Shown here: positions 3,466 through 29,226 of the stretch, one piece after another
Position numbering within the stretch: the first letter of the stretch is position 1
How the letters are laid out: each line of letters begins with the position of its first letter
From: a phage
Reading direction: 5' to 3' (one strand)
Sequence record: PV419677.1
Length of the DNA stretch: 64,000 nt
The notes under the pieces: generated by a model
What the model was told of the DNA's origin: nothing
Database searches by the model: none
Seen by the model: only the letters and a program-made list of their open reading frames with translations
Translations under genes and position numbers: made by a program

Positions 3466-3539
3466 TATACTCTATTTCGGAATCGTTGTAAACAGGTTCC
3501 TCTGGCTCGGTAGTTTTCCACCGAGCGACATACCATGGC

Positions 3540-3848
3540 TTAACGGTCACACCACCAACTACTTACTTCAAAATCAGGTTCACCGTGTTCCCAGTACCAA
3601 GGACCGACTGGGTGCCAATCGCCATGTTCATCTTCTTCGTATTCTTCAGATTCGAGCCCAACGTATTGCCATTGGACTTCATAAGCAGTGCCACCGATTA
3701 CAACAGTGTTCTCGCCATATGGATGGGCTACAGCAAAGTCTATACCTTCTGCTTTGGCTAACCAAACCATATATTCGTATAGCTTATATTCCAGGTCATC
3801 TTCGGTGCCATCACCTAGAAAAATGGTTTGTTCGTTTAATTCAATCAT
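3540..3848 (-). CDS. hypothetical acidic protein
   Basis: ORF track, 102 aa, Trp/Glu-rich. Confidence 0.5.
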   Translation of the reverse strand: MIELNEQTIFLGDGTEDDLEYKLYEYMVWLAKAEGIDFAVAHPYGENTVVIGGTAYEVQWQYVGLESEEYEEDEHGDWHPVGPWYWEHGEPDFEVSSWWCDR

Positions 3849-27107: not shown

Positions 27108-27551
27108 TTAAATTTCAAATTCTTTGCGGAAGTTGGAAGCATAAGACTGAACTGATGCTTTGTTGAATCCAAACTCACGCACAATCATATCAATAACAGC
27201 TCTGCGAGCAGCACCATTAGACATATTAACAGTTTTGAACATATCATAGCATAAATCTTTGTTGCTCATACCGGAGCGTTTAGGTGCCTTACGTTCAGCT
27301 TTTGGTTCAGTCTTAGGAGTAGGTTTAACTTCTGGTTTAACCTGTCCATCATTCAGACCTTTAAAAATTTTACCTGCCAGTGTTGCCAGTTTAGCAGCTT
27401 CGCCACGAGTGATACCAAATACTGCCGGGTTAAATGAAATACCTTCAGCTGTCAGACGTTTGAAGAACATACGTGCAGCGGATTGTGCTTCAGCTTCAGA
27501 AGAGTTGTTTAATGCCAGTTTAACATACTTAACCAATTTTGAAGTTTTCAT
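27108..27551 (-). CDS. hypothetical protein, paralog A (VQSYASNFRK C-terminus)
   Basis: from MKTSKL; C-terminal GAARRAVIDMIV..VQSYASNFRK shared with the next gene. Confidence 0.55.
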   Translation of the reverse strand: MKTSKLVKYVKLALNNSSEAEAQSAARMFFKRLTAEGISFNPAVFGITRGEAAKLATLAGKIFKGLNDGQVKPEVKPTPKTEPKAERKAPKRSGMSNKDLCYDMFKTVNMSNGAARRAVIDMIVREFGFNKASVQSYASNFRKEFEI

Positions 27552-27593
27552 TTTATTATCCCGTTTGTTTATTTGGTAACTCAGTATGGGATA

Positions 27594-27623
27594 ATTATAC
27601 ACTATCCCACCTGGAAGTAAAAC
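27594..27623 (-). promoter_or_regulatory. sigma70-like early promoter (-35 GTTTTAC, -10 GTATAAT)
   Basis: repeat cassette; -10 flanked by GGGATA/TATCCC. Confidence 0.45.
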
Positions 27624-27634
27624 ACTTTTCTCAA

Positions 27635-28060
27635 TTATTTTTGAGCTTTGCGGAAGTTGGAAGCATAAGACTGAACAACAGTCTTTTTGATATCATGGGT
27701 GTTAACCAGAACATCAATCAGAGCGCGACGAGCTGCACCATCTGCCATATCAATTTCTGCAAATGCCTGGAAGCAAATGTCACGAGCATTACCAGATTTG
27801 GACCGGATTTTTTCTTCTTTAACTTCTTCAATTGGGAATTCAATCATTTCAGCTTGGATTAATTCAATGATAGATTCTTTTGACTGTTTGGTGTTTACCT
27901 TCAGTTCAGAATTAAGGGACTTGGCAATGGCAACAATCTGGGTTGAAGTCAGATGAATAAGTGCATCTTCACGAATGCAGATTTCACATACTTCGTCAGC
28001 AACCATTTTGTTGGTGATGCGGGTAACAGAGAATGCAGAGGTCAGGGTCAGGAAGTTCAT
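27635..28060 (-). CDS. hypothetical protein, paralog B (VQSYASNFRK C-terminus)
   Basis: from MNFLTL; C-terminal GAARRALIDVLV..VQSYASNFRK. Confidence 0.55.
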   Translation of the reverse strand: MNFLTLTSAFSVTRITNKMVADEVCEICIREDALIHLTSTQIVAIAKSLNSELKVNTKQSKESIIELIQAEMIEFPIEEVKEEKIRSKSGNARDICFQAFAEIDMADGAARRALIDVLVNTHDIKKTVVQSYASNFRKAQK

Positions 28061-28111
28061 TTTATTTCTCCAAAGTTTTGTTTGATTCAGTGTGTAACTC
28101 AGTATGGAATC

Positions 28112-28141
28112 ATTATGCACCCGGTCAATTCGGATGTACAC
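28112..28141 (-). promoter_or_regulatory. sigma70-like early promoter (-35 GTGTAC, -10 CATAAT)
   Basis: repeat cassette with CCATACTGAGTTAC leader. Confidence 0.45.
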
Positions 28142-28171
28142 TACTTTTTGAAGAAAATTTCAAATTTATTC

Positions 28172-28206
28172 GGGGTATAAAAAAGCCCCAACCTTTCGGA
28201 AGGGGC
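28172..28206 (-). terminator. intrinsic terminator 3' of the tRNA/stable-RNA cluster
   Basis: GCCCC..GGGGC hairpin followed by a six-U run on the minus strand. Confidence 0.55.
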
Positions 28207-28215
28207 TATGCCTTG

Positions 28216-28589
28216 CGGCAACCTTGTCGGGGTTCCACCTGCTAAGGCAAGTGTTTGTACGAAACGCCGGGATTTGAACCCGGTTATTAAGTAGTTGACG
28301 CTACTCAATATTTTTAAAAGGCCATATCTCGACCATATCCGAACGTTCCGTCAAAAACGCTGCTCGGCTTACGGCAAAGATATTCCCTCGAATCGATAAT
28401 TCTGTGCGCCGTTTCAGCTGTGATATAAGGGGACATCAACAAATCGTAAAGATTTATTAATGCCAGTCCTTAAACAGGGAACTTCAGTCCGACGACTTAC
28501 CGGTAGCGACCCGGTTTCTTGTTTGTTGCGCCGGTGAATGCTGATAATCAGTCTTCATACGACGGCTTGACTATATAATAGTCTTCATT
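28216..28589 (-). ncRNA. non-coding region 3' of tRNA-Arg, putative stable small RNAs
   Basis: ~375 nt with no ORF-track ORF; hairpins GACTAT-TA-ATAGTC and CTGAT-T-ATCAG; tRNA-like T-arm CCGGGTTCAAATCCCGG at 28266-28282. Confidence 0.4.
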
Positions 28590-28664
28590 TGGTATCCCGC
28601 CCTGGGATCGAACCAGGACCGCAAACTTAGAAGGATCGTATGCTATCCATTACACCAGCGGGAC
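28590..28664 (-). tRNA. tRNA-Arg (anticodon UCU)
   Basis: 75 nt hand-folded cloverleaf: acceptor GTCCCGC/GCGGGAT, T-arm CCTGG-TTCGATC-CCAGG, anticodon loop CTTCTAA, encoded CCA. Confidence 0.7.
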
Positions 28665-28669
28665 ATAGT

Positions 28670-28746
28670 TGGTGACCCAGACCAGATTTGAACTGGTAAC
28701 CTTTCCCTTATGAGGGGACTGCTGCTAACCATTGAGCTACAGGGCC
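28670..28746 (-). tRNA. tRNA with CAU anticodon (Met or Ile2-type)
   Basis: 77 nt: T-arm ACCAG-TTCAAAT-CTGGT, anticodon loop CTCATAA, encoded CCA; D-arm pairing imperfect in my hand fold. Confidence 0.6.
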
Positions 28747-28845
28747 TTAATTCTATTATGAAAGGTTCTTTGAGGGAAGAACCTTTGGTAATAGAGGGTA
28801 CTTAATAATGATATAGTAATAATATCACATAATTCTTAAAGCATA

Positions 28846-29226
28846 TCAACCTTCATCAACAATAGTATGTGTATTGGCATTGACAATCTGCCACCAGTCA
28901 AAACGGTTGAAACCATAACAAGGCTTATTCTCGTTTTCTTTAATGATAACACGCAGTTCATCTTCGGTCGCAGCCTTTGCGATTAAGTCAGCATAACCGC
29001 CGCGAGGATAATAGTTATCACCTGCAAAAAGCAAAAAATTTGTTTTGATATTCTTGAATTCTTCAAGAGTAATAACTGTTCCACCAGGTTGAACAATATC
29101 TACATAACTATACCCTAATTTTTGAGCTTCATCTACCGCTTCAAGCAGGGTGTCATGTGCCCGCCCAATTTGACAATCTGGTTTTTCAGATGGATTTGCC
29201 TGATAATCCGCATACACTTTATACAT
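28846..29226 (-). CDS. hypothetical protein
   Basis: from MYKVYADYQ (ATG at 29226). Confidence 0.5.
   Translation of the reverse strand: MYKVYADYQANPSEKPDCQIGRAHDTLLEAVDEAQKLGYSYVDIVQPGGTVITLEEFKNIKTNFLLFAGDNYYPRGGYADLIAKAATEDELRVIIKENENKPCYGFNRFDWWQIVNANTHTIVDEG

Follow-up and report, generated by a model that had tools for sequence, protein, structure and literature searches.

The DNA considered here is a window of 64,000 nt, the whole stretch that was analysed, from the phage sequence record PV419677.1. Positions 28216-28589 of this window, about 375 nt located 3' of a tRNA-Arg gene, very probably hold the orthologues of rnaD and rnaC, two small stable RNAs of bacteriophage T4, within a shortened tRNA operon (28178-28849) of a T4-like Dhakavirus. 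Transcription runs from high to low coordinates, that is, on the minus strand. The feature is already known from T4, where both RNAs were first found about fifty years ago.

Homology to the T4 stable RNAs

A megablast search with the region returned 742 phage records, nearly all of them T4-like phages of enterobacteria, and several of the 795 phage records that match the region carry an rnaC or rnaD annotation. Shigella phage fPSFA matches at 100%, followed at 95-97% by the Dhakavirus-like phages ABTNLsp5, QL01, WG01 and KIT01. BLAST identity to the T4 records over the rnaD/rnaC stretch is 91.9-92.5%. The two genes align to their T4 counterparts at about 92-95% identity, too high for the alignment to be an artefact.

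The T4 references are those of NC_000866, in which rnaC occupies 70908-71046 (139 nt) and rnaD 71053-71171 (119 nt). Pairwise alignment of the minus strand with NC_000866 places T4 rnaD at 28403-28519 of the window, with its first three nucleotides (the 5' AUG) at 28586-28588, upstream of a 66-nt insert. T4 rnaC aligns over its full length (3490-3628 of locus L002) to 28396-28258 with few substitutions, and its homology is found by nhmmer with E = 1.9e-38. The rnaD covariance model, R1, scores 122 bits (E = 4e-28) over 28403-28526. The order of elements is that of T4, with tRNA-Arg followed by rnaD, rnaC and the terminator, and the spacer between rnaD and rnaC is 6 nt long here.

A preliminary description of the stretch had suggested that it might correspond to T4 RNA C and RNA D, which lie at the equivalent place, and had proposed alignment to the T4 RNAs as a check. 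Both genes align, in the same order, and together with the BLAST identity and the gene order this bears out the suggestion. The position is also the same as in T4, with rnaD directly after tRNA-Arg and rnaC before the terminator.

T4 rnaC and its counterpart in the window have the same length, each is the final RNA of the tRNA cluster ahead of the terminator, and their predicted folds are identical, at -50.0 and -50.2 kcal/mol. The two differ by a handful of substitutions, such as a T loop that reads UUCAAAU in the window and UUCGAAU in T4. In rnaD, the core and the helices P1, P2 and P3 are the same, the P4 hairpin is of the T4 type, and the gene lies directly upstream of rnaC in both phages. 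The differences include the insert, which splits the first three T4 nucleotides from the rest, and a covarying P3 pair that is A-U in the window and U-A in T4. The T4-type 3' end of rnaD, ...GCGCACC(A), was not found in the window, which reads GCGCACAGAA. This end (28403-28406) is polymorphic, with GCGCACC(A/G)A in T4 and many relatives and GCGCACAGA here and at loci L051, L093, L099 and L105. Since either CACC or CACA can be present, the CCA-like end of the T4 molecule (species 2 RNA) is not conserved. The GCGCACC(A) end belongs to the T4 molecule, and not necessarily to the rnaD family.

Predicted folds of the two RNAs

rnaC forms a four-way junction that resembles a tRNA. An acceptor-like stem of 7 bp, CGAUUCG/CGUUUCG, which includes two U.U mismatches, holds the 5' and 3' ends together. 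Inside it, a long arm of about 70 nt is followed by an A-rich 11-nt junction (UUUUAAAAAU), a third arm of 9 bp with the loop CGUCAA, and a T arm, CCGGG-UUCAAAU-CCCGG (28267-28283), whose 5-bp stem and 7-nt loop abut the 3' strand of the closing stem. The acceptor-like stem (7 bp) and the T stem (5 bp) make up the 12-bp acceptor/T unit of a tRNA, with the canonical UUCRAAU loop. The T arm had been noticed in the preliminary description as one without a full cloverleaf; it is indeed there, but it is not orphaned, being part of the rnaC four-way junction.

The minimum free energy (MFE) fold of the rnaC segment, at -50 kcal/mol, has a z of -4.49, and none of 200 dinucleotide shuffles was as good. 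In an alignment of 14 rnaC sequences, 89% of cells are paired and 18 of the 43 pairs have changed on both sides; none of 500 shuffles reaches the observed level and slid controls are 38-47% paired, although these controls leave some phylogenetic signal in, as do those for rnaD below. Unguided RNAalifold recovered the same helices, with compensatory changes in 19 of 35 pairs. The closing stem itself co-varies: an A-U pair is replaced by G-C, and in a Yersinia phage U-A and C-G pairs stand in place of the two U.U mismatches.

A canonical tRNA (RF00005) likewise has a 7-bp closing stem, a 5-bp T stem, a UUCRAAU loop and four helices around one junction. In rnaC, however, the hairpin of about 70 nt replaces the D arm, the third arm of 9 bp ends in a 6-nt loop, so that there is no anticodon loop, the junction is 11 nt long and A-rich, and CCA is not encoded. 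rnaC was neither matched by the Rfam tRNA model at E <= 10 nor called by ARAGORN in the window. In other phages ARAGORN miscalls two rnaC homologues, one (L121:7816-7911) as a 96-nt tRNA-Phe and the other (L093:980-1073) as a tRNA-Stop(tta).

The tRNA-like domain of transfer-messenger RNA (tmRNA), the bacterial Y RNA YrlA and the tRNA-like structures of plant viruses are acceptor/T-arm mimics that are grafted onto other RNAs and handled by tRNA enzymes, a principle that rnaC would share. In rnaC, by comparison, the mimic is the whole molecule, without an mRNA-like or Ro-binding module, and Rfam gave no match to any of these families.

rnaD has a different architecture: a hairpin at the 5' end and, after it, a long irregular one (P2-P3-P4). 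Like the fold of rnaC, it is kept across genera by compensatory substitutions. The 5' hairpin, P1, is ACCGG-GUCGCUA-CCGGU at 28499-28515, with 5 bp and a 7-nt loop, and is followed by a near-invariant block, UAAGUCGUCGG. The long hairpin consists of P2 (GUCGUCG/CGGCGC(A)C, with the core CGUCG/CGGCG), P3 (AGUU/AGCU) and the variable P4, of which there are at least four unrelated sequence versions among the homologues. The fold of the rnaD segment has z = -3.4, a value reached by none of 200 dinucleotide shuffles. Across 20 sequences, including one from a phage outside the T4 family, 87% of cells are paired and 10 of 16 pairs have changed on both sides (0 of 500 shuffles; slid controls 28-49%), and RNAalifold finds compensatory changes in nine of 14 pairs. 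By eye, P1 alternates between ACCGG/CCGGU, GCCGG/CCGGC, UCGGG/CCCGA and AUAGGG/CCCUAU, and P3 is fully replaced between groups (AGUU/AGCU, UGUU/AGCA, UUUAAU/AUUAAA and UUGUU/AACAA). The structure prediction with covariation that had been proposed for the stretch thus supports the folds of both RNAs.

A hammerhead or k-turn (CUGAUG...GAAAC) was considered for rnaD and rejected, as the variable base co-varies as a P3 pair. The hammerhead is also ruled out by Pectobacterium phage PM2, in which a continuous helix stands in place of the loop, and by the lack of any Rfam ribozyme match. PM2 has tandem rnaD copies, a mini version of 82 nt (L266:65-146) and a full one (L266:287-412), and it is in the full copy that the continuous helix replaces the P2/P3 internal loop.

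The presence of a T arm and an acceptor-like stem in rnaC, and the miscalling of its homologues in L121 and L093 as odd tRNAs, might suggest that the RNAs are decaying tRNA pseudogenes without a selected function. This is very unlikely, and is largely refuted by the covariation: compensatory helix changes are found across Tequatro-, Dhaka-, Teguna-, Kanagawa-, Gelderland-, Karam-, Winkler- and Marfavirus, and the region does not align to degraded tRNA pseudogenes only, an outcome that the preliminary description had named as fatal to its proposal. Moreover, no Rfam tRNA match falls on the stretch at E <= 10, rnaD lacks any tRNA-like layout, and both RNAs build up as discrete species in T4 (PMC9697503).

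Known RNA families, bacteria and coding potential

When the window was scanned with Rfam 15 at gathering thresholds, and 28000-28900 at a permissive E <= 10, just the two tRNAs scored. These scans gave no match to tmRNA, self-cleaving ribozymes or known small RNA families in the flagged stretch. The remaining permissive hits are noise; the one within the region is isrK on the plus strand, at 16 bits against a gathering threshold of 50. ARAGORN called no tmRNA either. Among 5,426 E. coli genomes there was no homologue. A pattern scan of bacteria produced 120 loci, mostly from GC-rich genomes, none of which stood out from noise when scored with the rnaD model (at best 19.5 bits, E = 0.07), and in a second batch none of 20 loci reached E <= 1.

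The stretch had been described as having no open reading frame (ORF), and 28207-28589 indeed has just short overlapping mechanical ORFs of at most 55 aa. It is extremely unlikely that one of them, a 42-aa ORF with a TTG start at 28314-28442 (minus strand), encodes a small protein. By eye, T4 has a similar open frame across the rnaD/rnaC junction, a 37-aa counterpart with an ATG start, but the stops differ between T4 and the window. The start of the 42-aa ORF lies in the variable P4 hairpin of rnaD, with its four or more unrelated sequence versions, and the frame spans a junction that does not exist in phages without rnaC or with the RNAs about 1 kb apart. Its substitutions are explained by base-pair covariation. 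The small-protein reading was rejected because phages with a different junction or P4 hairpin do not keep the ORF.

Distribution among phages

rnaC homologues occur in Tegunavirus, Kanagawavirus, Gelderlandvirus, Karamvirus, Winklervirus and Marfavirus phages, and rnaD homologues in Tequatro-, Dhaka-, Karam-, Jiaoda-, Moon-, Mosuguk- and Kanagawavirus. Outside the T4 family (Straboviridae), the Vequintavirinae phages A7_1, W70 and UPEC06 have rnaD as well. IMG/VR was scanned with a 14-mer and a degenerate rnaC pattern; the loci obtained were mostly due to chance, and the true homologues were sorted out by nhmmer. Many GenBank records leave rnaC and rnaD blank or overlay them with "hypothetical protein" coding sequences (CDSs).

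The neighbours of the two RNAs vary. Across genera, rnaC is preceded by tRNA-Trp, tRNA-Met or a CDS, and rnaD by tRNA-Arg, tRNA-Asn, tRNA-Met or a stop codon. In Karamvirus-like phages, tRNAs stand between rnaD and rnaC, which are about 1 kb apart and occupy the middle part of the tRNA cluster. A clean absence of rnaC is seen in AnYang, SHP1 and several IMG/VR Dhakavirus contigs, with rnaD joined to the conserved trailer that otherwise follows rnaC. rnaC and rnaD behave as separate cassettes inside phage tRNA clusters.

At the rnaC-less Dhakavirus loci (L006, L008, L027, L081, L085, L105 and L120), about 146 nt are gone and the join reads ...GCGCACCGA|ACACUUGCC... These phages are natural deletion variants in which rnaD, the trailer and the terminator stay.

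In A7_1, the rnaD-family RNA (L007:1188-1292) is located directly 3' of a tRNA-Met(cat), and the family is likewise seen in W70 and UPEC06. It has compensatory P1 changes and a short P4, with a P4 loop, AGUUCCCUCAACGAUAAC, that is common to rnaD of the Karamvirus type. The A7_1 type suggests horizontal spread together with tRNA genes. Just upstream of the same tRNA-Met (L007:~1017-1108) there is a tRNA-like element, GCGCGGG...GGUUCGAGUCC...CCCGCGC, that ARAGORN does not call and that may be either a tRNA of unusual type or a further tRNA mimic.

Two further rnaD-like matches are divergent, L004:357-461 (37.7 bits) and L194:6431-6532 (26.3 bits). The former is from Kanagawavirus phage IME523, where the match lies between tRNA-His and tRNA-Met and rnaC comes right after tRNA-Met; the latter is from an IMG/VR contig with a near-identical rnaC.

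Expression, processing and possible roles

The T4 precursor is processed by RNase III, RNase E and RNase P, according to work on T4 in the 1970s and 1980s. Going by that work and by general tRNA processing, rnaD and rnaC would be co-transcribed with the tRNAs, with cuts by RNase P at the acceptor-like stem of rnaC and, in the A-rich spacers, by RNase E or RNase III. Both RNAs would then persist because their ends are buried in helices. In T4, RNAC and RNAD are classed as late RNAs, and this has been confirmed by northern blot (PMC9697503).

What the RNAs do once they are made is a matter for more cautious proposals. The favoured one, itself rather improbable, is that they are tRNA mimics which bind proteins in trans, in an interaction specific to the host; such mimics might, for example, occupy a host factor that targets tRNA. 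In favour of a host-specific role, a convergent single-nucleotide polymorphism in rnaD appeared in all lines of the T4-like phage BW1 evolved on the semi-permissive E. coli ECOR34 (PMC12685909).

Alternatively, the region could be a cis-acting 3' tail of the tRNA operon only, which guards the tRNAs from 3' exonucleases and offers entry sites for nucleases. This is considered unlikely, and equally so the corollary that the stable fragments are by-products without a function of their own. The RNAs are always found within or at the end of tRNA clusters, the terminator comes after them, rnaC is dispensable in some relatives, and no function has been reported (PMC3014915), all of which would suit a tail. 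A protective tail, however, needs no conserved loops, while rnaC keeps its CGUCAA loop and an AAAAAU junction across genera, with co-varying stems, and rnaD keeps CCCUG and the near-invariant UAAGUCGUCGG. In the Karamvirus-like phages, moreover, the RNAs are in mid-cluster, about 1 kb apart, and not at the 3' end. The conserved loops and co-varying stems argue for a function beyond that of a protective tail.

Several points weigh against reading the stretch as a pair of stable, functional RNAs of the T4 kind. The absence of rnaC from several close relatives means that it is dispensable, at least there. The 3' end of rnaD is CACAGAA here and CACCAAA in T4, so that no CCA-like end is encoded, and the covariation behind both folds was measured against controls that do not remove all phylogenetic signal. 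Discrete stable rnaC and rnaD species are a prediction for this phage, as their accumulation has been shown for T4 alone, and the processing enzymes and the trans-acting role are matters of inference. Even for T4, the roles of RNAC and RNAD are not known according to a review (PMC3014915).

On a wider view, rnaC and rnaD would be two widespread structured phage RNA families that move as cassettes and act as tRNA mimics or protein sponges. As a whole this is a speculative reading and quite unlikely to hold in full. The families are spread over at least ten Straboviridae genera, with rnaC reaching Marfavirus and rnaD also the Vequintavirinae, and neither has an Rfam model. If the view were correct, the mimics or sponges would oppose tRNA-directed host factors or immune nucleases, which would explain why the RNAs are gained and lost like cassettes and why a convergent rnaD mutation arose during adaptation to a new E. 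coli host.

For the window itself, the outcome is an annotation for about 260 nt that are left blank or mislabelled "hypothetical protein" in related phage records. The comparative data also show that rnaD occurs beyond the T4 family (Straboviridae), and they provide covariation-supported folds and conserved loops to mutate, which are starting points for genetics and for Rfam families. Natural variants are at hand in the rnaC-less phages, the four rnaD P4 hairpins, the PM2 mini-rnaD and the Dhakavirus insert.

The 66-nt insert

The insert begins three nucleotides into the T4 rnaD sequence and comprises exactly two "GAAGACT" hairpins, neither of which is present in T4. Hairpin 1 is GACUAU-UAU-AUAGUC (28569-28583). 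Hairpin 2, CUGA-UUA-UCAG (28541-28551), tops an interrupted hairpin, GCCGUCG...CGGCGC (28528-28566). The preliminary description had recognised both of these similar hairpins, giving the first a loop of 2 nt, which is in fact 3 nt, and writing the second as CTGAT-T-ATCAG, with an impossible 1-nt loop in place of the realistic form above. It had also counted them among the possible counterparts of the T4 RNAs, which they are not: the T4 RNAs lack them, and the alignment assigns them to the insert.

The repeat ATGAAGACT has just two copies in the window, at 28550-28558 and 28580-28588, 30 nt apart. The count itself is unremarkable (shuffles give a mean of 0.6, and 15 of 100 also reach two); the point of interest is rather that both copies sit within the insert. 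The 71-nt segment that holds the insert (28519-28589) has a fold z of -3.2, with one of 200 dinucleotide shuffles as good.

A sensitive BLAST search found the insert in just 27 phage records, at 97.8-100% identity. Those whose taxonomy was looked up, AnYang, WG01 and ABTNLsp5, are Dhakavirus. In other Dhakavirus-like contigs, a different tRNA-Arg is joined directly to rnaD via the same AACAAGAAACCGGG leader. On sequence comparison, the insert is new relative to T4, and it is most likely a spacer left by rearrangement and found in Dhakavirus records only.

A more tentative possibility is that the insert derives from a tandem rnaD copy that has decayed and undergone an internal deletion or, alternatively, is a third small RNA in its own right. 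By eye, it contains blocks in the order of rnaD: ATGAAG, with which rnaD starts in T4 and A7_1, a hairpin in the position of P1, and then AAGCCGUCG (compare AAGUCGUCG) and CGGCGCAAC (compare CGGCGCAC), which pair with each other like P2. A genuine mini-rnaD does exist upstream of the full copy in PM2 (31.6 bits, not in the seed). The rnaD model aligns the insert from end to end, but with a score of only 7.5 bits (E about 5), which is at noise level and sixth among eight hits in the window, and global alignment of the insert with rnaD gives z = 1.2, with 241 of 2000 shuffles as good. The insert also lacks the CCCUG and AUCAC junctions of rnaD, and the top of hairpin 2 is broken in relatives by single uncompensated changes (UUAUCAG to UUACCAG or UUGCCAG). 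A decayed rnaD copy is thus unsupported by the covariance model and by the shuffled global alignment, and remains a lead.

Layout of the operon

The elements of the operon are listed in Table 1. The promoter-like site at its upstream end matches the consensus at nine of 12 positions, and the region has six such sites where 3.8 are expected; as a candidate start of the tRNA/stable-RNA operon, it is weak on its own. The leader hairpin that follows it is not a typical terminator, as there is no U tract after it. Its segment (28750-28850, minus strand) folds at -22.4 kcal/mol with z = -4.69, unmatched by any of 200 shuffles.

Table 1. Elements of the tRNA/stable-RNA operon, in the direction of transcription
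Element	Position	Strand	Description
Promoter-like site	28821..28849	-	TTGATA-17 nt-GATATT, TG before the -10; candidate operon start
Leader hairpin	28752..28795	-	Inner 10-bp perfect stem AAAGGUUCUU/AAGAACCUUU; between promoter-like site and first tRNA
tRNA, anticodon CAU	28670..28746	-	Called Met by ARAGORN; RF00005 53.9 bits
tRNA-Arg(UCU)	28590..28664	-	RF00005 48.8 bits; CCA encoded
66-nt insert	28520..28585	-	Relative to T4; placement ambiguous by 1-2 nt
rnaD (T4 species 2 RNA) orthologue	28403..28519	-	T4 alignment, covariance model, covariation
rnaC (T4 species 1 RNA) orthologue	28258..28396	-	T4 alignment, MFE fold, covariation
Conserved trailer	28208..28257	-	Hairpin CACUUGC-CUUA-GCAGGUG and small GCC-GCAA-GGC hairpin; between rnaC and terminator
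Intrinsic terminator	28178..28207	-	Hairpin AGCCCCUUCC-GAAA-GGUUGGGGCU at 28184-28207, then UUUUUU

The two tRNAs and the strong terminator that had been said to bound the stretch are both there: ARAGORN and Rfam find the tRNAs on the minus strand, and the hairpin at 28184-28207 is followed by six U residues. The tRNA with anticodon CAU is 100% identical to a gene annotated as tRNA-Ile in T4, and tRNA-Arg is identical to that of T4, with all tRNA columns invariant in the alignment. These two, tRNA-Ile and tRNA-Arg, are the only tRNAs in the operon and are separated by 5 nt (28665-28669). Compared with T4, the segB homing-endonuclease gene and six upstream tRNAs (Gln, Leu, Gly, Pro, Ser and Thr) are missing.

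At the other end, the trailer is retained even in relatives without rnaC, and the terminator is homologous to a T4 site labelled "pot. stem-loop structure; pot. terminator" in X03016. A strict terminator scan missed the 28184-28207 hairpin because of its 2x2 U.U internal loop. The sole "terminator" that the scan did report in the region, at 28499-28515 on the plus strand, is the reverse complement of rnaD P1 with a T-rich run; it is almost certainly spurious, a result of the RNA structure on the minus strand.

Just past the terminator there are two tandem ORFs on the minus strand, 27108-27602 and 27635-28141, that resemble paralogues by eye and have a common C-terminal motif, GAARRA.ID..V......K..VQSYASNFRK.

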